64,000 bases of DNA from Gemmatimonadota bacterium. GTDB taxonomy: Bacteria; Gemmatimonadota; Gemmatimonadetes; Gemmatimonadales; GWC2-71-9. Shown in pieces: positions 3,057 to 47,744 of the stretch. The translations under genes and the position numbers were made by a program. The notes beneath the pieces are model-generated. The model was given only the letters and a program-made list of their open reading frames with translations, ran no database searches and was not told where the DNA came from. Position 1 is the first letter of the stretch; each line of letters starts with the position of its first letter. The stretch lies in the NCBI GenBank assembly GCA_041486305.1, contig JBGPLG010000001.1, positions 84,429-148,428 of the forward strand. Reading direction: 5' to 3'.

Positions 3057-3131
3057 GGCCGTAAGGTAGGGGAAACCGGGCCCGGTGCCGCACCGACACG
3101 ACCGGGTTGACGGGACAACCGGCCGGCGGTA

Positions 3132-3154
3132 CATATGTTGTTATACAATATATG
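3132..3154. promoter_or_regulatory. imperfect 10-3-10 inverted repeat, candidate PadR operator overlapping the padR start codon
   Basis: CATATGTTGT-TAT-ACAATATATG, arms match 9/10. It sits in an AT-rich patch within GC-rich DNA and includes the ATG at 3152. Confidence 0.4.
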
Positions 3155-3496
3155 GAGCAGCCGGTGCTCGATCGGGAATGGAAGAAGGGCAGCGCGGATC
3201 TCCTGGTGCTCTCCCTGGTGGAACACGAGCCCCGCCACGGCTATGACCTCTGCAAGCTGATCGAGACCCGCTCCCGGGGCGTGCTGACTTTCCACGTCGC
3301 ATCGCTGTACCCGCTGCTCTACCGCCTGGAGAAACGGGGCTGGATCGAGGGCCGCTGGGTGGAAAAGGCGGGCCAGCGGCGGCGGCGCTACTACCGGCTC
3401 ACCCCGGTCGGCCGGAAGGTCCTCGCCGCACAGCGGCGGAGCTGGAGCGCCTTCGCCGCCGCCATCAGCCGGATCGCGGGGGTCCAGAATGCCTGA
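3152..3496 (+). CDS. PadR family transcriptional regulator
   Basis: Winged-HTH signature [27 protein letters not shown]...[18 protein letters not shown]...[12 protein letters not shown]. Start set at MEQPVL because the codons upstream (YVVIQY) are AT-rich and atypical for this DNA. Confidence 0.88.
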
Positions 3497-6173
3497 CTGG
3501 AGCGGCGAGATCCGTCGGCGGCTGGCGCCGCTCTCCCTGGAGCCCACCCGCGAAGCCGACATCGTGGAGGAGCTGTCGCAGCATCTGGACGACCGGTACC
3601 GGGAGCTGCTGGCCCGGGGCCTCGCGGCGGACGCCGCCACGCGCGCCGCGCTCGCGGAGCTCAGCGACGAGGAGCTCACCGGCGCCCTCCGCGGCATCGA
3701 ACGGCCCGCTCCGGCTCCGGCGCCCGCGCCCGGCGCTCCGCGCACCCGCCGGTGGAGCGGCCAGTTCCTGCAGGACCTCCGCTTCGGCGTTCGCATGCTG
3801 CGGACCCGCCCCGGCTTCACGGCTGTCGCCATGCTCACCCTGGCGCTGGGCATCGGTGCCAACACGGCGATCTTCAGCACCGTCAACGGCGTGCTGCTCA
3901 AGCCGCTGCCCTATCCCGAGTCGCAGAATCTGGTGACGTTCTGGGGCACCGCGCCGGAAAAGCGGCTTCCGGTGGTCAACTACCCGGACGCCATGTTCGT
4001 CTTCTTCCACCAACACACCCGGGTGCTCGAATCGGTGGCCGCTTACTCCGGTGGCGGGGTCAGCCTGTCCGGGGAAGGCGACCCTGAGCGGGTTCCGGCG
4101 ACGGCGGTCTCGACCGACTTCTTCTCCGTCATGAGGCAGGTTCCCGTGGCGGGGCGGGGGTTCGTGGCGGACGAAGGAACCAGCGGCAAGAGCAACGTCG
4201 TCGTGGTGAGCCACGCGCTCTGGCGGCGGCGCTTCGGGGGCGATCGCAACCTGGTCGGCAAGTCCATCCTGCTCGGCGGGCAGCCTACAGTGGTGGTCGG
4301 GATCATGGCGCCGGGTTTCGATTTCCCGGAGCGTTCCGAGCTCTGGGTCCCGCTGGTGCTCGACCCGGAAAGCGTGAACAACTGGTACCTCTCGACGGTC
4401 GGACGTCTCAAGCCCGGTCGGACGGTGGAGGACGCCCACCGGGAAGTGGCGGCCATGAGCGACGAGTTCATGCTGAGTCGCCCGGCGAGGTTTCCGGACG
4501 CCAAGCCCGGCGGGGGGAGGGCGGTGGTCCAGCCGGTGCTCCAGAGCCTGGTGGGAGATGCGCGCACTCCGCTTCTCGTACTTCTCGGCGCCGTCGGGTT
4601 GGTTCTGCTCATCGCCTCGGCCAATATCGGGAACCTGCTTCTGGCGCGGGCGCTCGCCCGCAACCGTGAAATGGCCCTGCGTTGCTGTCTGGGGGCCAGC
4701 ACCGGGCGGATTGCCGCCCAGCTGCTGACCGAAAGCCTGGTGCTCGCGGTGCTGGGGGGCGCAGTGGGCCTGCTGCTGGGAGCCCTCGGCGTCGGCCTGA
4801 TCCGGGGCCTTCAGGTCGGACCGGTGCCTCGGCTCGCCGAGGTCCGGCTCGATCCACTCGCCCAGCTCTTCGCGCTCGGTATCACCCTCACCGCGGGCCT
4901 GTTCTTCGGGATGGCGCCGGCGATCCGCGCCTCCCGGGTGAACCCGCTCGTGGGGCTCCAGGGCGGCGCCCGCGGCGGCAGGTCCGGGGGCGCACGACGG
5001 CTGAGCCACGGATTCGTGGTCGCGCAATTCGCCCTGTCGCTGATTCTCCTGATCGGCGCCGGGCTGCTGCTGCGGAGCTTTCGGCGGACGCTCGAGGTCG
5101 ATCCCGGCTTTCGGCCCGAGAACGTCGTGACGGCCCGGGTCCAGCTCCCCTGGCCCAAGTACCGGAGTGACACGGTGGTCCGCGTGTTCCAGACCCGGCT
5201 GCTCGAGTCGGTGCGCACGCTCCCGGGCGTGCGGGAGGTGGGGCTGGCGAGCCGGGTGCCGTTCAGCCCGGGCAATCCCCAACAGAACCTGTACGTCGAG
5301 GACCATCCGGCTCGGTCGGGCGAGGCGATCCCGGTCGTCAATTCGCGAGTGGTCTCCCCCGGGTACTTCGAGGCGATCGGAACGCCGATCCTCCGGGGCC
5401 GCGGGTTTTTGCCGAGCGACAACACCAACGCGCCCCAGGTCGTCGTGGTGGATGAAACCCTGGCGCAGCAGTACTGGCCCGGCGCCGATCCTCTCGGCAA
5501 GCGGATCAGAGTCAGCACCGACAGCGGCACGCCGTGGCTTGCCATCGTCGGTGTGGTGCCAAACGTGAAGCACGCGAGCTTGCGCGAGCGACCCAACTTC
5601 GAGCTCTACCGGCCGTTCACCCAGAATCCCACCTGGTCCTCCTACGTCGTCATGCGCTCCCGAAGCGCGTCTGAGGGACTGGTCCCGGAGCTCCGGCGTC
5701 GGGTGGCCGAGCTGGATCCGACGCTGCCGGTCTCCGAAGTCCAGACGATGGAAGGGGCGATGGCCGAATCGCTGAGCCTCGCCCGGCTCACCAATCTGCT
5801 GCTCACCGGGTTTGCGGGCCTCGCCCTGCTGTTGGCGGTCATCGGCATCTACGGTGTGATGTCGCTCGATGTGAACGGGCGGCTGAGCGAGTTCGGCGTA
5901 CGGCTCGCGCTCGGCGCGGCGCCGCGGGATGTGCTTCGGCTAGTGATGCGACGAGGGCTGTTGCTGGCGCTGCTCGGACTCGGGATCGGCCTGGCCGGTG
6001 CGGTATGGCTGACCCGGTTCCTCGGCGCGCTGCTTTTCGAAGTAAGCCCGGTGGACCCGCTCATCTTCCTGACGGTGGCCGGAGCGCTGACGGCGGCGGC
6101 GGTTTTCGCGTGCTACTTGCCGGCCCGCCGCGCCACCCGGGCCGATCCCATCACGGTGCTGCGGCGCGAATAG
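3489..6173 (+). CDS. ADOP-type duplicated MacB/FtsX permease with N-terminal prefix domain (copy 1)
   Basis: 894 aa. About 95-aa charged helical prefix, then [37 protein letters not shown] (TM1). Two FtsX 4-TM blocks and the C-terminal [17 protein letters not shown] tail. Overlaps the padR stop by 8 nt. Confidence 0.92.
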
Positions 6174-6185
6174 CCGGCTCCGGGC

Positions 6186-8678
6186 TCATTCCGCGCGCAA
6201 TGTGATCAGCGGGTCCACCCGGGTGGCGCGCCGCGCGGGCACGATCAACGCCAGCAGGGCAACGGTACCCAGCAGGAGCAGCAGGACCCCATACACCCTC
6301 GGGTCGGTCGGCTTGACGCCGTAGAGCAGCGATTCCAGCAGCCGGCTCAGCGCCAGCGCGCCGAGCACTCCCGCCGCGAGCCCGGCGCCCGCCACGGCCA
6401 GCCCTTCGCGGACCACCATCCACGCAATCATGCCGGGCCCGCCCCCGATGGCGATGCGGATGCCGATCTCCCGGCTCCGTTCACTGACCGAGTGCGCAAT
6501 CACCCCGTAGATCCCCAGCGCAGCGAGTCCGAGCGCCAGGATCGCGAAGGCCGACAGCAGGCCGGCGTTAAACCGGGCCCGGGCCCAGGTTGCGGCGAGC
6601 GCGTCGGACATGGTCCGCACGTCGAAGATCGGCAGGCCGGGCTCCGCGGCGTTCACGGCCGCGCGGACCTCCGCCACGACCGAGAGCGGATCGCGCTCGG
6701 TCCGCGCCATGACGGTTCGAAAGGCGTAGGTGAACTGGAGGTACGGCGTGTAGAAGCTGGCCTGGCCCGCCGCGCTCTCGATCGATCCATACGGCACGTC
6801 GCCCACCACCCCGACGATCACAGCGCTCGAATCGGGACTCGAGAAAGTACTTCCTCCCCCGAACCAGACCCGCCGACCGACCGGGTCCTCGCCGGGCCAG
6901 AACTTCTGCGCCGCGGTGCGGTTGATGATGGTGACGTGCGGCGCGCCGGCGCGATCGGCCGGCGTGAAGGCCCGGCCGCGCAGCACCGGAATTCCGAGGG
7001 TCCGGAAATGGTCGGGGCCGACATAGTGACGGGTGATCGGCGGCGCCCGGCCGGGCTCCGGCGGCGGCCGGCCCGCGATGTAGAGCGTGCTGTTGGCGTA
7101 GCGGTCGTCGAACGGAGTGCCGGCGTCGACCGAAGCCGACACGACGCCGGGCACCACGGAGACCCGCTGCAGCAGCCGCTCGAGGAGTGCCGGCGCCCGC
7201 TCCGACGGATAGCGCGTGTCGGCCGGCTGGATCCGGAAGGTCAGGAGCCCGGCCGGCTGGAAGCCGTGGTCGACCGCGACCGTCCGCCGGAAACTCTCCA
7301 CCATCAAGCCGGCGCCAATACACAACATGAGCGCCAGCGCCATTTCTCCCACGATGATGAGCCCGCGAAGCTGGGGACGGCGCAGCGAGAGAGACCGCCC
7401 TGCGGAGCTCCCGCCTCCCCGCAACTCCGCGGCCAGGTCGGACCGGGTGGCGCGCAGCGCCGGCAACAGGCCAAACAGCACGGTGGTTCCGAGCGCCAGG
7501 AACAGCGCCATGCCCAGCACGGTGGGGTCCAGCCGCGCCGTGGCGAATTCTCCCAGTGCGCCGTACCCTCCGCGCGCCCCGATGGTGCGCTCCGGTACGG
7601 CCAGCCATCGCAGGATCAAGGCGGCGAGCAGCACTCCACCCAGGCCGCCGGCGCCGGCCAGCAGCACGCTTTCGGTGAGGAGCTGCCGGACCAGCCGCGG
7701 CCGGCCGACCCCGAGCGCGAGCCGGACGGCGATCTCGCGCCGCCGGGCCACCGCGCGTCCGAGTTGGAGGCTGGCCAGGTTGGCCGAGGCGACCAGCAGG
7801 AGGAAAATCGCGGCTCCGAACAGGACCAGTACCGCGCGGCGATTCACCGGATCGATGCGCGCCGCATCGAGCGGAACGGCGGTAGCGGCGAACGTCGCCG
7901 GAACGTCGGTCTCGCTGGGGAGCTCGGCCTGGATCCTGGCGCCAAGGACGGCCAGCTCGGCCCGTGCCGCGGCCGGCGTGACACCGTCGCGCAGCCGGCC
8001 AATGACGCTGAGGAAGTTCTGGTTGGTGGTGAGGTGCTCCCGATAGCTGAGCACCGGCGCCATGGCCTCGGGGGTCCAGAGCTCGGCCTTGCCGGAGAGC
8101 CCCCGGAACCCCGGGGGCATAACGCCCACGATGGTGAGCGGCTCGGCTTCCAGGGTGAGGGTCCGTCCGATCGCGGCGCGGTCACCCGCGAAACGGCGCT
8201 GCCAAAGCGCATAGCCGAGCAGGACGGCCGGATGCGCCCCGGGGATGGAATCCTCTTCGGGCAGAAAAGTCCGGCCGACCAGTGCCGGTACCCCCAGAAT
8301 CCCGAAATACCCGGCCGAGACCTGCTCGCTGGACAGGCGCTCCGGCTCGGCCCCGTCGGTCAGGTTGATGCTGGCCGGGCCGAAGGTCGACACGTCCGTG
8401 AACGAACGCTGTTCCCGGTGCAGCATTCGATAGCGCGGGAAGGACCAGCGCTCGCGCCCCGCGAGGGCCCCGTTCTCGGTTCGGGTGATATAGGGCAGCA
8501 TCAGGCGATCGGCCCGCTCAAACGGGACCGGACGGAACAGCGCGCCGTAGACCACGCTGTATACCGCGGTGGTGGCGCCAATGGCGAGCGTGAGCGTACC
8601 GACCGCGATCGCGGCGAAGAGGCGGCTCCGCACCAGGGCGCGGAGCGCGAAGCGAAGGTCGTGCAGCAGGCTGTCCAT
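6186..8678 (-). CDS. ADOP-type duplicated MacB/FtsX permease, prefix-less (copy 2)
   Basis: Start set at ATG 8678 (MDSLLHDLRFALRALVRSRLFAAIAVGTLTLAIGATTAVYS), which aligns with TM1 of the other copies. AGGAAG lies 5 nt upstream. C-terminal tail PARRATRVDPLITLRAE. The longer ORF to 9179 is Arg/Gly/Pro-rich and overlaps the sigma gene. Confidence 0.88.
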   Translation of the reverse strand: MDSLLHDLRFALRALVRSRLFAAIAVGTLTLAIGATTAVYSVVYGALFRPVPFERADRLMLPYITRTENGALAGRERWSFPRYRMLHREQRSFTDVSTFGPASINLTDGAEPERLSSEQVSAGYFGILGVPALVGRTFLPEEDSIPGAHPAVLLGYALWQRRFAGDRAAIGRTLTLEAEPLTIVGVMPPGFRGLSGKAELWTPEAMAPVLSYREHLTTNQNFLSVIGRLRDGVTPAAARAELAVLGARIQAELPSETDVPATFAATAVPLDAARIDPVNRRAVLVLFGAAIFLLLVASANLASLQLGRAVARRREIAVRLALGVGRPRLVRQLLTESVLLAGAGGLGGVLLAALILRWLAVPERTIGARGGYGALGEFATARLDPTVLGMALFLALGTTVLFGLLPALRATRSDLAAELRGGGSSAGRSLSLRRPQLRGLIIVGEMALALMLCIGAGLMVESFRRTVAVDHGFQPAGLLTFRIQPADTRYPSERAPALLERLLQRVSVVPGVVSASVDAGTPFDDRYANSTLYIAGRPPPEPGRAPPITRHYVGPDHFRTLGIPVLRGRAFTPADRAGAPHVTIINRTAAQKFWPGEDPVGRRVWFGGGSTFSSPDSSAVIVGVVGDVPYGSIESAAGQASFYTPYLQFTYAFRTVMARTERDPLSVVAEVRAAVNAAEPGLPIFDVRTMSDALAATWARARFNAGLLSAFAILALGLAALGIYGVIAHSVSERSREIGIRIAIGGGPGMIAWMVVREGLAVAGAGLAAGVLGALALSRLLESLLYGVKPTDPRVYGVLLLLLGTVALLALIVPARRATRVDPLITLRAE

Positions 8679-8734
8679 GTGTACTTCCTGGGATGCCGGC
8701 CGGACCCCGTGGGTTTGGGCGGTCCGGGTTCGCG

Positions 8735-9979
8735 CTAGCGAGTCAGTTCCCGGATGCGGCGCTCCAGAAAATGGCGCTCCGGCTCCAATTTCGTCAGGGT
8801 GAGCGCACGCCGGTACGAGGCGATCGCCTCGGCGACCATTCCCAGGCGGCGGCAGAGGTCGGCGCGGGCCGAATGGGCCAGGTGGTAGTCGGCCAGCGCT
8901 CCCCGGAGGAGAATCGCGTCGATGAGCTCGAGCCCGGCCGCTGGACCGTCCCGCATCGCCACGGCCGCGGCGCGATTGAGCTCGACCACCGGCGTGGGAT
9001 CCGCGCGAAGCAGGACGTCGTAGAGGCCCACGATCTGCCGCCAGTCGGTCGCGCCGGCGTCGGCGGCCTCGGCGTGCACCGCCGCGATGGCGGCCTGGAG
9101 CGTATAGGGGCCGAAGCGACGTGAGCCCAGGGCCCGCTCGACCAGGGCGCATCCTTCGGCGATCTGACCGCGATCCCACCGGCTGCGATCCTGATCGGCC
9201 AGCAGGACGAGCCCGGCGGAGGCGGACACCCGGGTCTCGCGGCGGGAGTCGTGCAGCAGCATCAGAGCGAGCAGTCCCAGGACCTCGGGTTCGGGCAGAA
9301 GATCGGCCAGGAGCCGCCCCAGCCGAATGGCCTCGGCAGAGAGATCGTGCCGGGTGAGGGAGGCGCCCGACGACGCGGTGTACCCCTCGTTGAACACCAG
9401 ATAGACGACGTGGAGCACGGCGTCGAGCCGCTCGGGCAGATCGGCCCGCGACGGCACCTGATAAGGAATACCGGCGTCCCGGATCTTGGCCTTGGCGCGC
9501 ACGATCCGCTGGGCCAGCGCGGGGGCCGAGATCAGGAACGCGCGGGCGATCTCTTCGGTCTCCAGTCCGCAGACCTCGCGCAGCGTCAGGGCGATCCGGG
9601 CGTCGGGGGGCAGGGCGGGGTGGCAGCAGGTGAAGACGAGGCGGAGCCGGTCGTCGTCGACGGCGTCGTCGTCCGGATCCGGCACGGGCGAGGCCTCCGC
9701 GTCCAGCCGCTCGGCGATCGAGGAGAGCGACGCGTCGAACCGGGCCCTCCGTCGCAGCTGGTCGATGGCCTTGAACCGTCCGGCCGAAACCAGCCAGGCC
9801 CGCGGGTTATCGGGAACGCCGGTCTCGGGCCAGCGGCTCAGGGCGGCGGCGAAGGCTTCCTGCAGCGCCTCCTCGGCGAGGTCGAAATCACCGAGGAGGC
9901 GGATGAGGGTGGCGAGGACCCGACGGGACTCGGACCGGTAAATGGAGTCCACCATGCTCCGGACCTCGTCAGCCGGCAT
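8735..9979 (-). CDS. ECF-type RNA polymerase sigma factor with long C-terminal extension (ECF42-like)
   Basis: 414 aa. Has RVLATLIRLLGDFDLAEEALQEAF, the sigma-4 region LTLREVCGLETEEIARAF and a roughly 200-aa helical/TPR-like C-terminal extension. Preceded by a YciI/DGPF gene, the hallmark context of the ECF42 group (from memory). Confidence 0.85.
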   Translation of the reverse strand: MPADEVRSMVDSIYRSESRRVLATLIRLLGDFDLAEEALQEAFAAALSRWPETGVPDNPRAWLVSAGRFKAIDQLRRRARFDASLSSIAERLDAEASPVPDPDDDAVDDDRLRLVFTCCHPALPPDARIALTLREVCGLETEEIARAFLISAPALAQRIVRAKAKIRDAGIPYQVPSRADLPERLDAVLHVVYLVFNEGYTASSGASLTRHDLSAEAIRLGRLLADLLPEPEVLGLLALMLLHDSRRETRVSASAGLVLLADQDRSRWDRGQIAEGCALVERALGSRRFGPYTLQAAIAAVHAEAADAGATDWRQIVGLYDVLLRADPTPVVELNRAAAVAMRDGPAAGLELIDAILLRGALADYHLAHSARADLCRRLGMVAEAIASYRRALTLTKLEPERHFLERRIRELTR

Positions 9980-10325
9980 TGTACTCCATGATGGGCCGGA
10001 CTTCGATGGAGCCGACCCGCACCGAGGGAATCCGGGCCGCCACCTGGATGGCGTCGTTCAGATCCTTGGCCGTGATGAGGTAGAAACCGCCCAGCTGTTC
10101 CTTGGTTTCGGCGAAGGGCCCGTCGGTGGTGGAGACCTTGCCCTGCCGCGACCGGATGGTGGTGGCCGTCTGGGTGGGCTGCAGGGGCTCGCCGCCGAGG
10201 TAGTGGCCGGTCTTCTTGATGTCGTTGGTGAAGGCGCGGTACTCCCCCATGACCGCGTCCGACTCTGCCTTCGGCATCTTTTCCCAGAGAGTCTCGTCCG
10301 AGTAGATCAGGCACAGGTATTTCAT
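9969..10325 (-). CDS. YciI-family (DGPF domain) protein
   Basis: 118 aa. Starts MKYLCLIY and contains the signature TTDGPFAETKEQLGGFYLI. Overlaps the sigma gene start by 11 nt. Confidence 0.9.
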   Translation of the reverse strand: MKYLCLIYSDETLWEKMPKAESDAVMGEYRAFTNDIKKTGHYLGGEPLQPTQTATTIRSRQGKVSTTDGPFAETKEQLGGFYLITAKDLNDAIQVAARIPSVRVGSIEVRPIMEYNAG

Positions 10326-10363
10326 GGCTGGCTCCGGTTGGTGTGGACCGTGTGGACGCCAGA

Positions 10364-10392
10364 TAGTCGTCCGGCACGGCGCCGAATCGACA
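10364..10392 (-). promoter_or_regulatory. candidate ECF42-type autoregulated promoter
   Basis: The minus strand reads TGTCGA - 17 nt - CGACTA, ending 38 nt upstream of the yciI ATG. It matches the TGTCGA/CGAC-type motif I recall for ECF42. Confidence 0.4.
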
Positions 10393-10483
10393 ATCGGATG
10401 ATCCCGGGCCAGGAAGGACGCCGGGCGGGGCCAAGTCCGGGCTCCCCGTTCGACCGCCTATGGGGGGTCGCTATTATACCGAT

Positions 10484-10522: not shown

Positions 10523-10571
10523 CGGAATCGGGTCCCGAATCGTCACCGTTCAGCTTTTCCCGGATGGCCGG

Positions 10572-26286: not shown

Positions 26287-27696
26287 ATGCCCGATCTCAC
26301 CGCCGTCGACATAGCGGGTAGGGTCGCGAGCAGGGAACTGAGCCCCGTGGCGGTCGTCGAAGCCGCGCTCGCGCGCGTGGCCGCGCTCAATCCCCGCCTC
26401 AACGCCATCGTCACGCTCAACCCGCGCGCCCTCGACGACGCCCGCGCCCTGGAGCGGCGTATTGCGCGGGGCGAGGTCGTGGGCGCCCTGGCGGGCGTGC
26501 CGGTCGGCATCAAGGATGTGACCCAGGTGGCGGGCCTCCGCACCACCTTCGGCGCTCCGCTCTACGCCGACCACGTTCCCGAGCGCGACGCCCTGGTGGT
26601 CGAGCGGCTCCGCGCCGCCGACGCCATCATCCTCGGCAAGACCAACACCCCCGAGTTCGCCGCCGGCGGTAACACCTGGAACGACGTGTTCGGTCGGACC
26701 CGGAATCCCTGGAACCTCCAGAAGAGCGCCGGCGGCTCGACCGGGGGCGGCGCGGTCGGCCTCGCGACCGGCATGATCGCACTCGCCGAAGGCACCGACC
26801 TGGGCGGATCGCTCCGGATTCCGGCGTCGTTCTGCGGCGTCGTTGGTCTCCGGCCATCGCCCGGGCTGGTGCCGACGGTCCCCACCGATTTCGTCTGGGA
26901 CACGCTCCAGGTGAGCGGCCCCATGGCGCGCACCGCGCTCGATCTGGCGCTGATGCTCCAGGCCATCGCCGGGCCCAGCGCCCTGTCCCCGCTGCGGCAG
27001 CCGATCCGGCATCGCGATTTCGTGGCCGCGGTACGCAACGGGCCGCTCCCCGGGCTCCGGGTCGCCTACTGTGCGGACATTGCCGGGATCGGCATTGATC
27101 CCGCGGTCGAGGCCGTCTGCCGTCGCGCCGCAAACCGGCTGGCGGGGCAGGGCGCGCAGCTGGACGTGATCGACCTCGATTTGAGCGCGGGACGCGACGC
27201 GTTTCTCGCGCTCCGGGGTCACTGGTTCGCCTCCTGGATGTCGGAGCGGCTCGACCGGCTGGACCAATTCGGGGTCAACGTCCGGAACAACACCCGGGCC
27301 GGCATCGAAGCGGTGGGAAAGGACCTCGGGCAGGCGGAGATGGTGCGGGGCCGGATCTGGCACCGATTCCACGAGCTCTTCGGGCGCTACGATCACCTCC
27401 TGACGCCCACCATGGCGGTGGCGCCGTTTCCGGTCGAGCAGAACTATCCCGAGACCGTCGCCGGGAAGAAGATGCGGACATACGTCGACTGGCTCGCGCC
27501 TACCTTCGTCCTGAGTCTCACCGGGCTGCCGGTGGCCTCGGTGCCCTGCGGGCTGGATCCCGACGGCATGCCGGTGGGCCTGCAGGTGGTGGGGCCGCCG
27601 GAGGGAGAGGAGGCCGTGCTCGCGCTGGCGCAGGTGCTGCAGGACCTCCACCCGATCGGCGGTCCGGCGATGGCCGGAAGCACTATTCCGTCTTGA
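26287..27696 (+). CDS. amidase-signature family amidase
   Basis: 469 aa. Has GVPVGIKD and the Gly/Ser-rich signature GGSTGGGAVGLATG. Confidence 0.9.
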   Translation: MPDLTAVDIAGRVASRELSPVAVVEAALARVAALNPRLNAIVTLNPRALDDARALERRIARGEVVGALAGVPVGIKDVTQVAGLRTTFGAPLYADHVPERDALVVERLRAADAIILGKTNTPEFAAGGNTWNDVFGRTRNPWNLQKSAGGSTGGGAVGLATGMIALAEGTDLGGSLRIPASFCGVVGLRPSPGLVPTVPTDFVWDTLQVSGPMARTALDLALMLQAIAGPSALSPLRQPIRHRDFVAAVRNGPLPGLRVAYCADIAGIGIDPAVEAVCRRAANRLAGQGAQLDVIDLDLSAGRDAFLALRGHWFASWMSERLDRLDQFGVNVRNNTRAGIEAVGKDLGQAEMVRGRIWHRFHELFGRYDHLLTPTMAVAPFPVEQNYPETVAGKKMRTYVDWLAPTFVLSLTGLPVASVPCGLDPDGMPVGLQVVGPPEGEEAVLALAQVLQDLHPIGGPAMAGSTIPS

Positions 27697-30409
27697 GGGC
27701 CCGGAGCGGATCGACCTGGGTGGCCCTCCGGGCCGGCAGGTAACACGCAACGAGGGCCACCCCGGCCAGAATGAGCGGGACGGCCGTGAACGTAGCCGCG
27801 TCGGTCGCCCCGATTTCGAAGAGCATGTAGGCCATCAGGCGCGTGACGCCGAGGGCCGCGGCCACCCCGAGCGCGATCCCCCCCGCGGCGAGCGCCATCC
27901 CTTCGCCGAGCACCAGCCCGATCACGTCGGGGGCCCGCGCCCCCAGCGCGATGCGCACCCCGATTTCCTGGGTCCGCTGCGCCACGGCATAGTGGAGCAG
28001 GCCGTACAGCCCCACGGCCGCGAGAGCCAGCGCGAAGGCGGCGAATCCGGCCAGCAGCCAGGTCTGGAACCGCCGCGCCGTGCTCAGCGCGCCCAGCGCG
28101 CGGTCGGCGGTGCCGACGCTCAGGATCATCAGGGTCCGGTCCACCGACCGGATCTCCTGCCGGACCGCTGGCGCCAGCGCGAGCGGATTCCCGTCGGTCC
28201 GCAACACCAGGTCGGTCGATCCGCCCAGGTTCGAGCCGAAGTACTCGGGAATGACCCCCTTCTCCAGTCCCTGCCGGTGCATGTCACCCACCACGCCGAC
28301 GATTTCGTACCAGTACACCTTGGGCGGCGCTCCGAGGTAGAACCGCCGGCCGATCGGGTCCCGGTCGGGAAAGAACCGCTGCACGAAGGCCTGGTTCACG
28401 ACCGCGGCCTCCGCCGGCCCCGCGTAATCGACTGCTTCGGATGTGACGAGCAGGTGAACCGCAGCGACCGCGTCCCCCTGGGAATGCAGACGACCCCTCC
28501 GCAGGGGAACCCGCATTGTGGAGAAGAAGCCCGGATCGACCGAACTCGACGCCAGTTGTCCGGTGCCGCCGCCGCCGGGGCCACCCGCGCCGCCCTCGAC
28601 GGTGATGGACTGGTCGGGGTTGTCTCGTCGGAGCAGGCTGCTCACCGCCCCGACATCGCGGACTCCGTGTACGCCCGCAAGGCGCTCGGTAAGCGTGGCC
28701 AGGGCAGCCAGCCTCCGTCCATACACGGTTTCTGCGGGCCCTCGAACTGCAGCGGCCGCTACCCGCACCAGCAGCACATGGTCGGGATCGAAACCCGGAT
28801 CGACCGCTTGCAGGCGCACGGCGCTCCGGATCAGGAGGCCCGCGCCGATGAGCAGGACCACCGCGAGCGCGCACTCGGCCACGACGAGCAGGCTCCGGAT
28901 CCGGCGGGTGCCGGACGCGCCCGGGCCGCCGGTCTTGAGCGCGTCGTTCGGGTTGCTGCGGGACAGTGTCCACGCCGGCACGATGCCGAAGAGAATGCCC
29001 GCGAGAATCGACACGCCCGCCATGAATGCCAGCACCGTCCCGTCCACCCGCATCCCGTCGATCCGGGCGATCCCAGGCGGTGCCGCCGCCGCGAGCACCC
29101 GCACCACCGCCGCCGCGAGGGCCAGGCCCGCCGCGCCGCCGATCCCCGCGAGAGTCAGGCTTTCGGTGAGCAACTGCCGCAATAGGCGCAGCCGGCCGGC
29201 GCCGAGGGACACCCGCACTGCCAATTCGCGGCCCCGGGCGGCCCCGCGCGCGAGCTGCAGGCTGGCGAGGTTCACGCAGGCGATCAGCAGCACCAGGCCG
29301 ACCGCCCCCAGCAGCACCCACAGTGCGCGCTGCAGGTTCTTTCCGGTGACCTGGTCCAGCAGCGGGACCACGGTCACGCCGAACCCGGGAAAATCCGGGT
29401 CCGGGCTGGGATAGGCCTGGGCCAGCCGCCGGCCGATGGCATCCATGTCGACCTGCGCGGCGGAGAAGCTGGCGCCCGGAGCGAGCCGTCCTACCACCCG
29501 CCAGTTGTTGAAGAAGCGGTCTCCACTCTCGCGCTGGAGCCGCCAGTAGGAGGTGACCGGCTCCCAGAGCTGGGTGCCGGGACCGGGGAAGAAGAACTCC
29601 GGCGGCATGACGCCGATGACCCGGACGCTGCGCGGCCCGCCTTTCGACGCGGTACCGTCGCCATCCAGGGAGAGGAACTTGCCTACGACGTCCCGGCGGC
29701 CGCCGAACCGGCGCTGCCAGAGTCCATAGCTCAGCACGACTACTGGCTCGCGCCGCTGCTGGTCCTCGGCGGTGATGCCGCGTCCCAGCAGCGGCTCGGC
29801 GCCGAGGAGAGGGAACAGCCGCGTTGATACGAAGCTGCTGGTGGTCCGCTCGGGCTCGTCTCCCCCCAGCAGGGTGACCGTATTGTCGAAGCTGAATACC
29901 GCCAGCTCGGCGAAGGTCCGGGTCTGGGCCTGCCAGTCCCGAACGGTAGGAAACGAGGTTTCCACCTCGTGGAGCCCGCGCCGGACGTCGTCGGTCCAGA
30001 GGACGGCGAGACGATCGGCGTCCCGGAACGGGAGCGGGCGCAGGATCACGGCGTTGACGCTGCTGAAGATCGCGGTCGTCGCGCCGATGCCGAGGGCCAG
30101 GGTGAGCAGGGCCACCAGCGTAAAGCCCGGGTTCTTCCGCAGCGAGCGCGCCGCATAGCGGAAATCGCTCCCGACCGACTCGAGGTTCGCTTCCCACCCG
30201 CCGCTCCGGGCCTCCTCCTTCACCGCGGCGACGCTTCCGAGCTCCAGCCGGGCCGCCCGCGCGGCCGATTCCGGCGTCATGCCACCGCGAATCCGCTCCC
30301 GGGTGGCCTGCGCGAGGTAGTCCTGCACCTCGTCGTCCAGCTCCGCCTCGACCGCGCGGCGCCGAAACAGGCCGCGCAGTCCATCCCGGATGGATCGCAG
30401 CAGCGCCAT
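27683..30409 (-). CDS. ADOP-type duplicated MacB/FtsX permease with prefix domain (copy 3)
   Basis: Start at ATG 30409 (MALLRSIRDGLRGLFRRRAVEAELDDEVQDYL). Prefix motif GGMTPESAARAARLELGS, TM1 [36 protein letters not shown], tail PARRATQVDPLRALKTE. Confidence 0.9.
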   Translation of the reverse strand: MALLRSIRDGLRGLFRRRAVEAELDDEVQDYLAQATRERIRGGMTPESAARAARLELGSVAAVKEEARSGGWEANLESVGSDFRYAARSLRKNPGFTLVALLTLALGIGATTAIFSSVNAVILRPLPFRDADRLAVLWTDDVRRGLHEVETSFPTVRDWQAQTRTFAELAVFSFDNTVTLLGGDEPERTTSSFVSTRLFPLLGAEPLLGRGITAEDQQRREPVVVLSYGLWQRRFGGRRDVVGKFLSLDGDGTASKGGPRSVRVIGVMPPEFFFPGPGTQLWEPVTSYWRLQRESGDRFFNNWRVVGRLAPGASFSAAQVDMDAIGRRLAQAYPSPDPDFPGFGVTVVPLLDQVTGKNLQRALWVLLGAVGLVLLIACVNLASLQLARGAARGRELAVRVSLGAGRLRLLRQLLTESLTLAGIGGAAGLALAAAVVRVLAAAAPPGIARIDGMRVDGTVLAFMAGVSILAGILFGIVPAWTLSRSNPNDALKTGGPGASGTRRIRSLLVVAECALAVVLLIGAGLLIRSAVRLQAVDPGFDPDHVLLVRVAAAAVRGPAETVYGRRLAALATLTERLAGVHGVRDVGAVSSLLRRDNPDQSITVEGGAGGPGGGGTGQLASSSVDPGFFSTMRVPLRRGRLHSQGDAVAAVHLLVTSEAVDYAGPAEAAVVNQAFVQRFFPDRDPIGRRFYLGAPPKVYWYEIVGVVGDMHRQGLEKGVIPEYFGSNLGGSTDLVLRTDGNPLALAPAVRQEIRSVDRTLMILSVGTADRALGALSTARRFQTWLLAGFAAFALALAAVGLYGLLHYAVAQRTQEIGVRIALGARAPDVIGLVLGEGMALAAGGIALGVAAALGVTRLMAYMLFEIGATDAATFTAVPLILAGVALVACYLPARRATQVDPLRALKTE

Positions 30410-30414
30410 GACGC

Positions 30415-30744
30415 TCACGCCTCGAGCAGCCGGGCGATGGCGGCCGTCCGGCGGGCCCAGTTCCGCGTTTCGGCCGCGAGCTGCTTCTGCCCCTTCGCGG
30501 TGAGCGCGTAGTACTTGGCGGTGCGGTTGTTCTCGGTGGCCCGCCACTCCGCTTTCAGCACCCCGGAGCGCTCCAGCCGCCGGAACGCCAGGAGCAGGGA
30601 GCCGGGGTTGACCTTGAAGACGCCCCGGCTGATCTGCTCGATGCGCCGCCCGATGCCGAACCCGTGCATCGGCTCCAGGGACAGCGACTTGAGGATCAGC
30701 AGATCCAGGGTGCCCTGAATGACGTCGGTCGACTCGCCCGGCAT
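30415..30744 (-). CDS. PadR family transcriptional regulator (acidobacterial-type)
   Basis: MPGESTDVIQGTLDLLILKSLSLEPMHGFGIGRRIE...NRTAKYYALTAKG. ATG 30744 preferred over the TTG at 30786. Confidence 0.88.
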   Translation of the reverse strand: MPGESTDVIQGTLDLLILKSLSLEPMHGFGIGRRIEQISRGVFKVNPGSLLLAFRRLERSGVLKAEWRATENNRTAKYYALTAKGQKQLAAETRNWARRTAAIARLLEA

Positions 30745-33852: not shown

Positions 33853-34927
33853 CGCCGCAGGCCAGCGCGAGCCGGGCGAAGGCCAGGGCCTCCGCCTCCC
33901 CGAAGCCGGCTTCGGTGTTCGACAGGATGGCCACCGCGACGCCCTGGTCGGGATACACCAGGATAAAGGCGCGGCCGCCGGTGGAGGCGCCGCCGTGGTG
34001 GACGTAGCGCCGGCCCAGCGAGTCCGTCGCGATGCGCCAGCCCAGCCCCACCGGAACAGGCATTCCGGCGCTGGTGTGCTGCTGGGTCAGGAGGAGGGCA
34101 CGGACCGAATCGGGGAGATAGCCGGGAGCGAAGACGCCGAGCCCGAAGCGGGCCAGCTCCTCCGCGGAGGAGATCACGCCGCCGGCGGGCCACCGGTCGC
34201 TCAGGTCCACCAGGTGGGACGGCTGATATTTCCCGTCGCTGTCTCTGGTATAGGGCCGGGCCTGGTCCCCGGCCGGTCCACCGCCGGGCTCGAGGCCGGT
34301 GCGGATGAGCTCGAGTGGCCGCGCCACTTCCTGCTCCAGCAGCTCGCCATAGCTCTTTCCCGACGCGGCTTCCAGGACCGCCCCCAACAAGTTGTACCCG
34401 TACGTGGAGTAGAAGTAGCGGGTGCCGGGCGGAGTGAGCAGGGTATCCCCGAGAAAGATTCCCAGGCTCGCGGGCACCGACGGATAGTGGGTCTGGTTTT
34501 CGAACTCGCCGGGTCCGTAGTGGCGAACTCCGGCGAGATGCCCGGCCAGCAGACGAGCGGTCAGGGTTCGGTACGGCCCCGGCAGTCTGGGCAGGTACCG
34601 GGAGATCGGTGCGTCGAGATCGAGGCGGCCGGCGGCTACCAAACGGGCCGCGATCGACGCGGTGAACACCTTCGAGACGCTGCCGACCCGGAAAACGGTC
34701 GAGCGCTCGATCCGGCGTCCGGTTTCGAGATCGGCCCGGCCGATCTGCCATCTCCACAACTGCCCGTCCGCAAGCGCCACGGCGATCGAGACGCCGGGAA
34801 GATCGAGTTTTTCGTAGAGCGCCTGGGCGAGCGAGTCCGATCGCTCCGCGACGACCGGGCTGGGCGGTGCGGGTGAGGGGCCGCACGCCGCGACGGCCAG
34901 CGCGAAGGCGAGTACCCGGCGCGTCAT
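33824..34927 (-). CDS. serine hydrolase (beta-lactamase/PBP4-like family) lipoprotein
   Basis: Start ATG 34927 (MTRRVLAFALAVAACGPS, lipobox VAAC). SxxK motif in FRVGSVSKVFTAS. The ATG overlaps the TGA of the upstream permease (ATGA). Confidence 0.85.
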   Translation of the reverse strand: MTRRVLAFALAVAACGPSPAPPSPVVAERSDSLAQALYEKLDLPGVSIAVALADGQLWRWQIGRADLETGRRIERSTVFRVGSVSKVFTASIAARLVAAGRLDLDAPISRYLPRLPGPYRTLTARLLAGHLAGVRHYGPGEFENQTHYPSVPASLGIFLGDTLLTPPGTRYFYSTYGYNLLGAVLEAASGKSYGELLEQEVARPLELIRTGLEPGGGPAGDQARPYTRDSDGKYQPSHLVDLSDRWPAGGVISSAEELARFGLGVFAPGYLPDSVRALLLTQQHTSAGMPVPVGLGWRIATDSLGRRYVHHGGASTGGRAFILVYPDQGVAVAILSNTEAGFGEAEALAFARLALACGARGSCGSAR

Positions 34928-37584
34928 TCTCCCCGCAGCACGATCGCCGGGTCGGCCCGAGTGGCCCGGCGGGCCGGGATCCAGCAGGCCGCGAACGCGA
35001 CCCCCAGGAACAGCGCGGCGGAAAGCCCCAGGACCGCGGGGTCGGCCGGGGTGACCTGGTACAGGAGTTTCGACAGGCTGCGCGCGATGAGCCACCCCGC
35101 GCCGAGCCCGCATCCGGCACCCAAGACGGCATCGCGCATACCGGAGCGGACCACTTCCGCGACCACCTGGGTATCACTGGCGCCGAGGGCCCGGCGCAGA
35201 CCCATTTCCCGGGTCCGCTGGGCCACGATATGCGAGATCACGCCGTAGACGCCGAGTCCCGCCAGCGCGGCCGCGAGCAACGCGAACAGGCCCATGACCC
35301 AGGCCCGGAACCGCTGCGGGGTGGAGGCGTGCCGCACCACCGCCTCCATGGTCTGCACCTGGCTCACCGGCAGGTCGGGATCCATCGCGTTGATGATCCG
35401 GCGCACCTCCGTCACCAGCGACAGCGGGCTCACGCTGGTGCGGAGCACCATGGTCAGGTAGCCCTCGGGAACCATCTCGGTGTTGCCGTAGATGATGGCG
35501 CGCGGCTCCTGGTCGAGGCCCCGCTCGCGCACGTCGCCCGCCACCCCGATGACATACCCCTGGGGGCGGTCGTCGTCCGGGCCCGGCTGCGCCGCCACCC
35601 GGATGAACCGGCCCAGGAACTTCCCGTCGGGCCAGAACTTCTTCGCCGCCGCGGCGCTGATGACGACGACCGGTCGGCCGCCCCGCCGGTCTTCCGCCGT
35701 GAACCCGCGGCCGGCGACGATCGGGATCCGCTGGGTGGCGAAGTAGTCGGCCGAGACCAGCCGGAGCTGGGCCGATTGGCTCACGCCGTCGGGCACCGGC
35801 ACGCTGTCGATGGTGAAGCTCGAGCTGTACCCGAACCCGTCGAGCGGCAGCCCGAAGACCAGGGAGGCGGACTCGACCCCGTTGATCGCGCCGAGCCGCC
35901 GCAACAGCTCCTGCTGGAACTGGACGATCGGCACGCTCTTGCCGTAGGTCTTGTCCGGGAGGGACACGCTCGCGGTAAGAGTCGACGAGGCATCAAACCC
36001 GGGATTCACCTGCTCCAGCCGCATTTTGCTCTTCACCAGCACCCCGGCCACCGCCAGGAGCGCCAGCGCCACCGCCGTCTCCACCGCCACCAGCCAGCGG
36101 TGCAACCCCCGCCGGGTGCCGACGCTCCGGCCACTGCCGCCGGCCAGCGCGGTGCGCAGATCGATCCGGGCGATCCGGCGCGCCGGCGCCAGGCTCACCA
36201 GCAGGGCAGCCAGCATGGTGACGCCCAGGGTGAAGAGCAGCGCCGGGGGATCGAGCCGGACCGTCTCGATCCGCGGCACGCCCTGGGGCGCGAAACGGCG
36301 GATCATTCCCGCACCGAATACCGCCACCGGAATCGCCGCCATCGCGCCGACCCCCACCAGCACCAGCACTTCGCTCGCGCCGTGCCAGAGCAGGCGCCCG
36401 CGCCCGGCGCCGAGCGCGCTCCGCAGCGCCACCTCGCCGCTCCGGCCGATGGCGCGCACCAGGACCAGGTTGGCGACGTTGGCGCAGGCGAGGATCAGCA
36501 GCAGGCCCACTCCGGTCATGAGAAGGATCAGCGTCGGGCGCGACTCCTCCACCACATCCTCGTGAAGCGATCGGAGATCCACGGTCCAGTTGGCGCTCGA
36601 CCTGGGGAACACCCGCGCGATGCGTGCCGCCAGCGTGACCAGCTCGGTTTTGGTGCCGGCAAGGGTAGCTCCGGCGGCGAGGCGCCCGGCGACATCGAGG
36701 TAGTGGCCACCCCGCTGCGAGGCGACGTCCCGGGGCGTCTGAAACGGGATCCAGGCGGCGCCCTCCCCGACCGGGAATTCGAAGCCCTGGGGCATCACGC
36801 CGATGATCTCGTAGCTCTCGCCGTCCAGGATCCAGCGTTTCCCCAGCACCGCCGCATCGCGGCCGAACCGGCCGACCCAGGTCCCGTAGGAGAGGATCGC
36901 GACGTGGGTCGCGCCGTTCTCGAACTCAGGGTCGACAAAACCGCGGCCCAGTGTGGGGGCCACCCCGGTCACCGCCTGGAATCCGCGGGTGACCGAGATG
37001 ACGGACACCTGCTCCGCCGGACCCATGCCGGTCGCGGCGGATTGGGATTCGGTCCAGGCGACCATCGCCCGGAAGCCCTGGCTCTCCCGCGCCCAGTCGT
37101 AGAAGTCGGCCGGAGCGACCGGAAAGGTCGGCCATCCGTCCGTGGGATTGCTGGAGGAGATCTTGATCAGCTCCCCGGGATTCGGATACGCCAGCGGCTT
37201 GAGGACCACGCCGCGGAGAACCGAGAAGACGGTGGCGTTGAGCCCGATGCCGAGCGCCAGGACCAGCACGGCGGTGGCGGTGAATCCGGGCGCCCGAAGC
37301 AGCGCCCGGCTCGATTGCCGAATGCCCTGGCACGCGCCGGCCCACCATTCGCGCCGGCGCCGCTCCTTCCGCTCGGCGATATCGATGGCCCGGCATTCGG
37401 CGGCGTAGCGGGACAGGGGGCCGAAGCGCTGCTCGGCCTCCCGGCGGGCGTCCTCGGGTGACAGGCCGCTCCGGGCCAGTGCCTCGGCTTTCATCGCGAG
37501 ATGGGCCTCGAACTCCGCCGCGACGTCTTCCGCGGGCGGCGGCTCCCGGCCGATCAACCGGAACAGCGAACGAAACCTGGTCAT
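34924..37584 (-). CDS. ADOP-type duplicated MacB/FtsX permease with prefix domain (copy 4)
   Basis: 886 aa. Prefix motif SGLSPEDARREAEQRFGP, TM1 LLRAPGFTATAVLVLALGIGLNATVFS, tail [17 protein letters not shown]. Confidence 0.92.
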   Translation of the reverse strand: MTRFRSLFRLIGREPPPAEDVAAEFEAHLAMKAEALARSGLSPEDARREAEQRFGPLSRYAAECRAIDIAERKERRRREWWAGACQGIRQSSRALLRAPGFTATAVLVLALGIGLNATVFSVLRGVVLKPLAYPNPGELIKISSSNPTDGWPTFPVAPADFYDWARESQGFRAMVAWTESQSAATGMGPAEQVSVISVTRGFQAVTGVAPTLGRGFVDPEFENGATHVAILSYGTWVGRFGRDAAVLGKRWILDGESYEIIGVMPQGFEFPVGEGAAWIPFQTPRDVASQRGGHYLDVAGRLAAGATLAGTKTELVTLAARIARVFPRSSANWTVDLRSLHEDVVEESRPTLILLMTGVGLLLILACANVANLVLVRAIGRSGEVALRSALGAGRGRLLWHGASEVLVLVGVGAMAAIPVAVFGAGMIRRFAPQGVPRIETVRLDPPALLFTLGVTMLAALLVSLAPARRIARIDLRTALAGGSGRSVGTRRGLHRWLVAVETAVALALLAVAGVLVKSKMRLEQVNPGFDASSTLTASVSLPDKTYGKSVPIVQFQQELLRRLGAINGVESASLVFGLPLDGFGYSSSFTIDSVPVPDGVSQSAQLRLVSADYFATQRIPIVAGRGFTAEDRRGGRPVVVISAAAAKKFWPDGKFLGRFIRVAAQPGPDDDRPQGYVIGVAGDVRERGLDQEPRAIIYGNTEMVPEGYLTMVLRTSVSPLSLVTEVRRIINAMDPDLPVSQVQTMEAVVRHASTPQRFRAWVMGLFALLAAALAGLGVYGVISHIVAQRTREMGLRRALGASDTQVVAEVVRSGMRDAVLGAGCGLGAGWLIARSLSKLLYQVTPADPAVLGLSAALFLGVAFAACWIPARRATRADPAIVLRGE

Positions 37585-37593: not shown

Positions 37594-37929
37594 TTACCGT
37601 TCCGCGGGGCCGAGCACCCGCTCCACCGCGCTCACATAACGACTCCACAGGGACACTTCGGCCCGCAGCTGGACCCGGCCCTTGGAAGTCAGACGATAGA
37701 ACTTGGCCTTCCGGTTGTTCTCGGACAGCCCCCATTCCGACTCGACCCAGCCGCGCCGCTCCAGCCGGTGCAGGGCGGGGTAGAGCGCGCCTTCCTCGAT
37801 CAGGAACTCCTCGCCGGAGCGCTCCCGGATCCAGGTGGACACCGCATAGCCGTGACGGGAGCCCCAGGAGAGGGCCTTGAGCACCAGGAGATCGAGGGTG
37901 CCCTGCAGCAGGTCGAGTGACGGAGCCAT
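37594..37929 (-). CDS. PadR family transcriptional regulator (acidobacterial-type)
   Basis: MAPSLDLLQGTLDLLVLKALSWGSRHGYAVSTWI...NNRKAKFYRLTSKG. An alternative ATG lies at 37941. The longer ORF to 38310 was rejected. Confidence 0.88.
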   Translation of the reverse strand: MAPSLDLLQGTLDLLVLKALSWGSRHGYAVSTWIRERSGEEFLIEEGALYPALHRLERRGWVESEWGLSENNRKAKFYRLTSKGRVQLRAEVSLWSRYVSAVERVLGPAER

Positions 37930-43490: not shown

Positions 43491-44675
43491 CTAGCGCAGT
43501 TCCCGCAACCGGGCCAGCTCGGCCGATTCGATCAGCCGTCCGCTCAGGACCACCGCGGACAGCGAGCGAAGGTTCCTGATGTCGGCGAGCGGGTCGGCGT
43601 CGAGCACCAGAAACATCGCCGGCGCCCCCACTTCGATGCGCCCGCTGCCGTGGTGCAGCACCGCCTCGGCAGCGGTGGTGGTGCCGGCCGCCAGGGCCTG
43701 GCGTGGCGTCATCCCGATCTCCACCAGCCGTTCCAGCTCGAGCAGCAGCACGTCGCCGTGCCGTTCCAGTACGTCGGAGCCGGCCAGGATCGGCACTCCC
43801 GCCTTCACGATCCGTCCCGCGAGCAGCTTCATCCGCGCATACGCCTCCCGCCGCCGCGCCGCGACCTCGGGGCTCGCCGTGGCAAAGGTCGCCTCATAGC
43901 CGACCAGGGTCGGATCGAAGAAGGTGTGGTTGCGCTTGAGAACGGCCCAGATGGAATCGCCATGGGGGCCCATGAGCCGGTCGGTGATCTGGAGGAACAG
44001 CTCGGGGGTCACCTTCAAGTCGGGCTGCTCGTTCTCGAAGATGGTCTGAATGTGCTCGATGGTACGCATGCCGCGATTCGACGCCTCGATCCAGGAGAGC
44101 GCCAGGGGAACATGTCCGCTCACCGTGAGGCCATTGCGGCGTGCCTCATCGATGACCGCGAGAAACGCCGGCCTTCCGATCGCGCGGTGCACCTTGATGA
44201 AGTCCACGCCCAGCGCCCGGAGCTCGCGCACGGCCGCGCGGGCCTCGGCCTCGGTGACGACCTTGCGGTGGAACGGGGCGGGCTGCTCGCCGTTGAGGGT
44301 GGGGCCGGCCATCACGATCTCGGGCCCGATCCGGTCGCCGGAACGGATCCGGCCCCGCAACGGAAACAGGGTGTCGGGAAACCCGCCCATGTCGCGTATA
44401 CCGAGCACGCCGTACCCGACGTACTGTTCCGGCGCATTCCCGACCGGGCCGGACGACGCCAGATGGGCGTGCATGTCCCAGAGCCCCGGGACCAGGAATT
44501 TTCCATGCGCATCGACGACCCGGGCGCCGGGAGGAACCCGGGGCGCCCGCCCGACGGCCGTCACGTGCCCGCGTTCCACCACCACGGTGCCCTGGGTGGC
44601 CGGGCTCTTCCCGGTGGGATCGATGATGGTGCCGTTGGCGATGACCAGCGCCTGCGCAAGCAGCGATCCTATCAA
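43491..44675 (-). CDS. amidohydrolase-superfamily metal hydrolase (Xaa-Pro dipeptidase / imidazolonepropionase-like)
   Basis: VIANGTIIDPTG...GKFLVPGLWDMHAHL (HxH metal motif). I prefer the TTG start at 44675: GGGAGG lies 4 nt upstream and it forms a TTGA overlap with the permease stop. The longest ORF starts at GTG 44735. Confidence 0.82.
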   Translation of the reverse strand: MIGSLLAQALVIANGTIIDPTGKSPATQGTVVVERGHVTAVGRAPRVPPGARVVDAHGKFLVPGLWDMHAHLASSGPVGNAPEQYVGYGVLGIRDMGGFPDTLFPLRGRIRSGDRIGPEIVMAGPTLNGEQPAPFHRKVVTEAEARAAVRELRALGVDFIKVHRAIGRPAFLAVIDEARRNGLTVSGHVPLALSWIEASNRGMRTIEHIQTIFENEQPDLKVTPELFLQITDRLMGPHGDSIWAVLKRNHTFFDPTLVGYEATFATASPEVAARRREAYARMKLLAGRIVKAGVPILAGSDVLERHGDVLLLELERLVEIGMTPRQALAAGTTTAAEAVLHHGSGRIEVGAPAMFLVLDADPLADIRNLRSLSAVVLSGRLIESAELARLRELR

Positions 44676-47399: not shown

Positions 47400-47744
47400 T
47401 CATGCCGGCCTCACCACGCTCCGGACCGCGGCCACCAGCTGGTCGAACGCCGAGACCTCATGGGCCAGCTGGCGACGGCCGGCCGGGGTGAGGGCGTAGT
47501 ACCGGGCTCGGCGTTTCGTGGGAGTGAGCCTCCACTCGGCGGTGACCCAGCCCTTGATCTTGAGGCGCTGGAGCGCGGGATAGAGCGAGCCTTCCTCCAC
47601 CCTGAGCGCGGCCCCGGAGAGCCGGCCGATATGCCCCGCGATGCCGTACCCGTGCATCGGCGTCACCGAGAGGGTCTTGAGGATCAGGAGATCGAGGGTT
47701 CCGGGGAGGAGCTCGACCCGGAGCGGATCGCGGGGGGCAGCCAT
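47400..47744 (-). CDS. PadR family transcriptional regulator (acidobacterial-type)
   Basis: MAAPRDPLRVELLPGTLDLLILKTLSVTPMHGYGIAGHI...KRRARYYALTPAGR. Confidence 0.9.
   Translation of the reverse strand: MAAPRDPLRVELLPGTLDLLILKTLSVTPMHGYGIAGHIGRLSGAALRVEEGSLYPALQRLKIKGWVTAEWRLTPTKRRARYYALTPAGRRQLAHEVSAFDQLVAAVRSVVRPA

Follow-up and report, generated by a model that had tools for sequence, protein, structure and literature searches.

A 64-kb stretch of DNA from a Gemmatimonadota bacterium (hereafter the window; G+C content about 70%) encodes five permeases of the ADOP family, numbered here as copies 1 to 5. Copy 2 lies behind a yciI gene and a gene for an extracytoplasmic function (ECF) sigma factor of the ECF42 group, and each of the other four copies lies behind a gene for a PadR-like protein. 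Two known modes of ADOP permease control thus appear to stand side by side in the window. In this work, profile searches and comparison with related loci were used to characterize both arrangements, with cutoffs of 622.3 bits for TIGR03434, 30 bits for NF038403, 27 bits for Pfam HAAS (PF22564), 42.9 bits for TIGR02937 and 27 bits for TPR_2. The features of the ECF42 operon and of the adjoining PadR-permease pair are as follows.

10366..10392, reverse strand: ECF42-type promoter with TGTCGA as the -35 element, a 17-nt spacer and CGAC as the -10 element, ending 41 nt before the yciI ATG.
9969..10325, reverse strand: yciI/DGPF gene (118 aa), the first gene of the operon; Pfam YCII, E = 2.8e-22, with the DGPF motif in the translation.
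8735..9979, reverse strand: ECF42 sigma factor gene (414 aa), with a sigma2/sigma4 core that is extended at its C-terminus by about 230 aa (DUF6596, TPR; Pfam); relatives of 57-89% identity are spread over many phyla.
8679..8734, reverse strand: 56-nt gap between the sigma and permease genes, with the ribosome-binding site (RBS) AGGAAG at 8689-8684; terminator, motif and promoter scans were negative.
6186..8678, reverse strand: ADOP copy 2 (830 aa), prefix-less; TIGR03434, 842.7 bits over model positions 1-803; no match to NF038403.
3489..6173, forward strand: ADOP copy 1 (894 aa), whose residues 1-92 form a HAAS-type prefix; TIGR03434, 918.9 bits; NF038403, 32.7 bits.
3152..3496, forward strand: PadR gene of copy 1; TIGR03433, 114 bits, and Pfam PadR.

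The sigma factor module is a typical ECF42 unit, in which every testable defining feature of the group was found. The core of the protein consists of Sigma70_r2 (residues 13-80) and Sigma70_r4_2 (residues 116-166), with a TIGR02937 match of 53.3 bits, and the C-terminal extension holds DUF6596 (residues 184-283, E = 3.8e-37) and TPR_2 (residues 367-395, 28.7 bits). Immediately before the sigma gene stands yciI, which extends 11 nt into its start. These domain assignments agree with the first-pass annotation of this DNA, which had placed yciI and an ECF42-like sigma gene upstream of, and co-directional with, copy 2. The comparison set comprised 84 loci that encode relatives of the sigma factor with 57-86% identity, drawn from Gemmatimonadota, Acidobacteriota, Pseudomonas, Rhizobium, Planctomycetes and elsewhere; in nearly all of these loci at least one YciI gene adjoins the sigma gene.

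The location of the TGTCGA-N17-CGAC promoter at 10392-10366 is the new element that we add to the earlier description of this operon. In a search of the 84 ECF42 loci, the window and L001 (an uncultured Gemmatimonas, the closest relative of the window in the genome collection, whose DNA is 80% identical over window positions 3129-9210), the motif TGTCG[AG]-N16-18-CG[AT]C was found in 59 instances before a YciI-type gene at a distance of no more than 150 nt, usually 35-50 nt before the ATG where the whole YciI-type gene was matched. From the -35 element to the ATG, the promoter and the 5' untranslated region are conserved in three related loci (L089, L090 and L091), in which the sequence farther upstream is not conserved. 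The site at 10392 is the only one of the extended form TGTCGAWW within the 64-kb window. The loose pattern is not enriched over the whole window (5 matches vs 9.95 expected); this site is meaningful only through its position and the cross-locus comparison.

The ECF42 promoter consensus of Streptomyces venezuelae reportedly consists of TGTCGA (-35) and CG(A/T)C (-10). The module in the window shares with the known ECF42 systems (SVEN_0747, SVEN_4377 and SVEN_7131 of S. venezuelae, RpoE10 of Sinorhizobium meliloti and ECF-10 of Pseudomonas putida) the sigma2/sigma4 core followed by a TPR-containing C-terminal extension, the adjacent DGPF/YCII gene, a TGTCGA...CG(A/T)C promoter before the DGPF gene and the lack of an anti-sigma gene nearby, and its sigma factor shares 57-79% identity with relatives encoded by Pseudomonas, Rhizobium, Planctomycetes and Acidobacteriota genomes. 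In S. meliloti, the target promoters of RpoE10 have the form TGTCGG-N17-CGTC, which the site in the window matches, and RpoE10 targets include the genes that directly follow rpoE10, its own ECF42 gene (PMC6180224). By analogy, the gene just downstream of the sigma gene in the window may be a target; however, the downstream target in S. meliloti has its own ECF42 promoter, whereas the downstream ADOP permease in the window has no such motif of its own.

The most likely reading is that copy 2 is the third gene of the autoregulated ECF42 operon and is transcribed with it, because the gap that separates it from the sigma gene is only 56 nt long, no terminator was found in it and no promoter of its own could be recognised. 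The earlier description of this gap, with the RBS AGGAAG and no obvious terminator, was borne out: AGGAAG lies 5 nt before the copy 2 ATG, and a terminator scan of 8679-8734 returned nothing. The predicted RNA fold of the gap is not more stable than that of shuffled sequence (z = -0.05). No sigma70-like promoter was recognised in the gap or in the 400 nt upstream of copy 2, which is weak evidence either way since the Gemmatimonadota consensus is poorly known; the same scan gave sigma70-like candidates upstream of PadR genes. The window, L089 and L001 share exactly the same 19 nt before the copy 2 ATG. A small stem in the gap is not kept in register in L001 or L089. Co-transcription is a plausible and the simplest reading of this layout, and we consider ECF42 control of copy 2, restricted to a narrow lineage, to be plausible and slightly favoured over its absence.

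The remaining three ADOP copies and their PadR genes are all located on the reverse strand.

30415..30744, reverse strand: PadR gene of copy 3, identified from its translation and by a hidden Markov model (HMM) built from the four PadR sequences of the window.
27683..30409, reverse strand: ADOP copy 3 (908 aa), with prefix; TIGR03434, 858.5 bits; NF038403, 48.2 bits.
37594..37929, reverse strand: PadR gene of copy 4, identified in the same way.
34924..37584, reverse strand: ADOP copy 4 (886 aa), with prefix; TIGR03434, 790.3 bits; NF038403, 44.6 bits.
47400..47744, reverse strand: PadR gene of copy 5, identified in the same way.
44672..47299, reverse strand: ADOP copy 5 (875 aa), with prefix; TIGR03434, 886.8 bits; NF038403, 29.9 bits, marginally below the cutoff.

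All five permeases match TIGR03434 (ADOP, duplicated permease) at 790-919 bits, and each contains two MacB_PCD (PF12704) and two FtsX (PF02687) stretches; no ATP-binding cassette (ABC) ATPase domain was found in them with Pfam. Like the type VII ABC permeases of the MacB, LolCDE and FtsEX systems, ADOP proteins combine an FtsX transmembrane domain with a MacB periplasmic core, each of which is present twice in a single ADOP polypeptide. Unlike these systems, the ADOP permeases of the window have neither a fused nor an adjacent ATPase, hence the "orphan" of the family name; the neighbours of copy 2, for example, are the sigma gene and another ADOP gene, so that no ATPase gene adjoins it.

The first-pass annotation had assigned an N-terminal prefix to the four PadR-linked copies and had described copy 2 as lacking both prefix and PadR. 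Both statements were reproduced: copies 1, 3 and 4 score above the NF038403 cutoff and copy 5 falls short of it by 0.1 bit, and in copy 2 the ADOP match begins at residue 4 (MDSLLHDLRFALRAL). The spacing between PadR and permease genes ranges from an 8-nt overlap to 100 nt in copies 1, 3, 4 and 5. Each of the four PadR genes is preceded by its own palindrome, AT-rich within a genome of 70% G+C: at about 3125-3150 for copy 1, at 30814-30836 for copy 3, at 37937-37955 and 37971-37989 for copy 4, and nested at 47741-47787 for copy 5. Examples are CCCATAGTGATCTTATGGG, CCCATAAGATGTCAATGGG and the nested CCATAG...CTATGG. For three of the four PadR genes the palindrome is near or overlaps a sigma70-like promoter candidate. 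The palindrome sequences differ among the copies, which suggests that each PadR has an operator of its own; no such palindrome was found upstream of copy 2 or yciI. Copies 1 and 2 are convergent with 12 nt between their stop codons (6173-6186), which leaves no room for a terminator, so that the converging transcripts could collide or overlap.

The association between prefix and PadR was tabulated, as the first-pass annotation had proposed, in 88 ADOP loci and the window (89 sequences), which were scanned with HMMs built from window sequences; the N-terminus could be examined in 242 ADOP genes. The prefix is present in 41 and absent in 201 of the 242, the prefix-less state being the majority form. 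Copy 2 is accordingly the only prefix-less copy within the window, as had been stated, but the description does not extend to the wider set. All 35 of the prefix sequences tested match NF038403 (NCBIfam), which validates the window-built prefix model. The counts, with the window and L001 set aside, were as follows.

Prefix present, PadR directly upstream: 25 genes.
Prefix present, no PadR directly upstream: 11 genes.
Prefix absent, PadR directly upstream: 5 genes.
Prefix absent, no PadR directly upstream: 187 genes.

The co-occurrence is strong (odds ratio 85, Fisher p = 4e-20), and although full independence of the genes cannot be assumed, the effect is very large. Of the 11 genes with a prefix and no PadR, nine stand immediately behind another ADOP gene within a tandem array, and PadR heads several such arrays; L085, with degenerate prefixes and no PadR, is a real exception. 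All five genes with PadR and no prefix have another N-terminal extension of 80-110 aa, which in two of them resembles NF038404 (perm_prefix_2). Long in-frame "extensions" on five prefix-less ADOPs were rejected as non-coding read-through, the true Met being located at the start of the core. Tandem arrays contain most of the prefix-less ADOP genes, at most eight in a row and with a median distance of 73 nt between them; such arrays, without a PadR gene nearby, were observed in L002, L020, L024, L052, L084 and others. Conservation in the prefix alignment is highest at GMxPxEARRAAxxxxG, which coincides with the motif G-x-x-P-E-x-A-R-x-A...G recognised in the first reading of the sequence. Stand-alone perm_prefix_1 proteins of 76-91 aa (P0124, P0137, P0154, P0180 and P0185) were also observed on long contigs, one of them on seven contigs, and may be split genes or free HAAS-like proteins.

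The proposal that the prefix is a PadR-specific module is therefore supported by this co-occurrence, and the refuting outcomes named in the first-pass annotation, such as prefix-bearing copies commonly lacking PadR, were not seen in these loci, but the proposal is not new. The HAAS domain was reported to be always accompanied by a standalone PadR-like winged helix-turn-helix protein, the HAAS-PadR pair was proposed to work like a two-component system, and an identical architecture is listed under the label HAAS in a table of the same study (Ravi et al. 2024, mSystems; PMC11237479). Copies 1, 3, 4 and 5 resemble this dyad in that a PadR gene directly precedes each permease gene and that the permease has a predicted helical N-terminal domain, in which a Gly/Pro turn is conserved. 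They show no substantive difference from it; a distinct palindrome upstream of each PadR is seen here. Copy 2, with neither PadR nor prefix, is not a member. HAAS domains are characterised by a three-helix fold that is kinked at a conserved GxP motif. In an AlphaFold2 model of residues 1-95 of copy 3, helices span residues 2-41, 46-70 and 75-92 with a break at G42-M-T-P45, at a mean predicted local distance difference test (pLDDT) score of only 65. A Foldseek search of this model against the PDB gave no match with E < 1, which made the model uninformative, and the best match of the prefix alignment profile to PDB sequences had E = 0.12. The TIGRFAMs descriptions of TIGR03433 and TIGR03434 mention the PadR-ADOP pairing as well. 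The link drawn between PadR and the prefix is right and already published, and our counts over 242 genes give independent quantitative support to the HAAS-PadR hypothesis; the interaction of PadR with the prefix itself is putative. In the mechanism that we consider for copies 1, 3, 4 and 5, a standalone PadR repressor gene stands before the permease gene, and the helical domain at the cytoplasmic N-terminus of the permease (perm_prefix_1, taken as the HAAS domain) would bind or release PadR according to the state of the permease.

The history of the second arrangement was followed through orthologous loci. The order yciI, sigma gene, ADOP is shared by the window, L089 and L001. In L089, the sigma factor is 86% and the copy 2 ortholog 85% identical to those of the window; in L001, the copy 2 ortholog has 86% identity, and its ratio of nonsynonymous to synonymous substitution rates (dN/dS) of 0.15 indicates purifying selection. 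The genes found downstream of the sigma gene in this clade are listed below.

Window, L089 and L001: copy 2, then convergent copy 1 with its PadR; in the window a PEMT-like gene comes next.
L090: a PEMT-like gene only, 82% identical to window positions 2442-3134.
L091 and L092: a SnoaL gene, then a convergent ortholog of copy 1 (80% identical) with its PadR.

L091 thus lacks copy 2 and retains the copy 1 ortholog and PadR at the same position. The stretch downstream of the sigma gene (window positions 2322-8678 compared with L090 and L091) is a hot spot of insertions and deletions, and a tRNA-Phe gene is located at 2322-2395, 47 nt beyond the PEMT-like gene. In distant loci, the first open reading frames downstream of the sigma gene were discarded as mostly spurious products of high G+C content. 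In L001, the segment 4890-5940 with yciI and the sigma gene carries at least four lesions (deletions or frameshifts): residues 66-209 of the sigma factor, including region 4, are lost, a frameshift follows near residue 248, and yciI is truncated and frameshifted. Both genes are probable pseudogenes, with metagenome assembly errors as a possible alternative. Both flanking permease genes, the RBS and the ECF42 promoter elements of L001 are intact. The intact promoter would fit use by a paralogous ECF42 factor and could equally reflect recent decay.

Taken together, HAAS-PadR dyads for copies 1, 3, 4 and 5 and membership of copy 2 in the ECF42 operon form a reading that we hold to be probable. 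The prefix-less copy 2 would have been placed, in the recent ancestry of a narrow Gemmatimonadaceae clade, in a variable slot downstream of a typical ECF42 module, which would then read, in order, the TGTCGA-N17-CGAC promoter, yciI/DGPF, the sigma gene with its TPR extension and copy 2. A number of observations weigh against this combined reading. For the dyads, homology of the prefix to Pfam HAAS (PF22564) stays below threshold (17.7 bits vs 27), with E = 0.0047 for copy 1, E = 0.02 for copy 4 and a best value of E = 9e-4; in favour of the dyads, HAAS is the sole Pfam family that the prefixes match repeatedly (seven of 35). For copy 2, co-transcription is deduced from layout alone: no ECF42 motif is found directly upstream of the gene, including 8679-8734, nor within 300 nt upstream of any ADOP gene or array head in the 88 ADOP loci. 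The downstream slot is occupied by PEMT in L090 and by SnoaL in L091 and L092 in place of ADOP. In L173, a prefix-less copy 2 ortholog of 70% identity has no PadR upstream and no sigma gene or yciI within 2.5 kb upstream. The permease of L001, intact and with a dN/dS of 0.15 despite the decay of the sigma gene, does not need that sigma copy, unless a paralogous ECF42 factor uses the kept promoter. Finally, copy 2 is a recent arrival in a variable position behind the ECF42 operon, and the arrangement is confined to a narrow Gemmatimonadaceae clade.

Several of the same observations speak for incidental adjacency, in which copy 2 would be expressed independently of ECF42 from an unrecognised promoter of its own, which could be located, for instance, inside the 3' end of the sigma gene. 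This alternative accounts for the purifying selection on the L001 permease beside a pseudogene sigma factor and yciI, for the varying downstream position among orthologous loci, for the L173 ortholog without a sigma gene upstream and for the lack of ECF42 motifs next to ADOP genes, and it gains from the high density of ADOP genes, of which the 64-kb window alone holds five. The shortness of the gap and the lack of a terminator after the sigma gene count against it, as does the retention of intact ECF42 promoter elements in L001 despite lesions in both coding sequences; the failure to detect a sigma70-like promoter in the 400 nt upstream points the same way, with little weight given the poorly known consensus. 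We regard incidental adjacency as a serious alternative and a clearly less probable one than transcription of copy 2 within the ECF42 operon.

A recurrence of the layout was found in an unrelated Acidobacteriota locus (L094), where the sigma gene is followed by an ECF42 promoter, a YciI-like gene and, after a gap of 55 nt, a prefix-less ADOP gene. The product of the latter is only 28% identical to copy 2, which makes L094 an independent juxtaposition and a point in favour of operon membership. One such recurrence among the 80 genome-derived sigma loci is within chance, because ADOP genes are so common in these phyla, and this counts on the opposing side. That a prefix-less ADOP is a genuine ECF42-DGPF output from the TGTCGA...CGAC promoter, both in the Gemmatimonadaceae clade of the window and, as a separate event, in one or more lineages of Acidobacteriota, seems to us less likely than not.

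The first-pass annotation had interpreted the locus as a regulator swap, and this interpretation was not sustained: copy 2 belongs to the majority prefix-less class, L173 has neither regulator, and the gene downstream varies among orthologous sigma loci. In a true swap, copy 2 would descend from a PadR-linked, prefix-bearing ADOP that lost both on coming under ECF42 control. All-against-all comparison of 217 ADOP cores showed prefix-bearing and prefix-less proteins intermixed at 37-44% identity, which means that gains and losses of the prefix must have occurred in the family, without indicating their direction; this and the position of copy 2 beside a PadR-linked copy would suit a swap. However, copy 2 shares only 33-38% identity with the other four copies of the window, it starts with MDSLLHDLRF, the usual N-terminus of prefix-less ADOPs, no prefix or PadR remnant was found upstream of it, and the 70%-identical ortholog in L173 is likewise prefix-less. 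We therefore consider a swap very improbable, and the locus is better described as a prefix-less ADOP inserted behind an ECF42 operon, beside an older PadR-ADOP pair.

Overall, the locus is an ordinary lineage-specific gene-order variant of modules that are both already known. To our knowledge, the physiological role and the inducing signal of ECF42 factors are still unclear, and we know of no ADOP permease with a known substrate. If copy 2 is truly driven by ECF42, it would provide a tractable link between the ECF42 response and ADOP permeases and would tie this response to a function in envelope export or remodelling; together with the clade-conserved divergent RND pump described below, it would also offer a concrete phenotype to screen for the ECF42 signal. 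The general significance of this link is limited, since it does not extend beyond a narrow clade and probably arose opportunistically.

The RND efflux operon (MFP, AcrB-like and OEP genes) occupies 10572-16388 on the forward strand, divergent from yciI. It is a neighbour specific to the clade of the window, unlike in other ECF42 systems: the neighbourhood is kept in the close clade (L089-L092) and not in more distant ECF42 loci. In the intergenic region 10326-10571 between yciI and this operon, two 14-nt arms at 10484-10497 and 10509-10522 form a perfect inverted repeat, and positions 10450-10477 on the forward strand are a candidate sigma70-like promoter.

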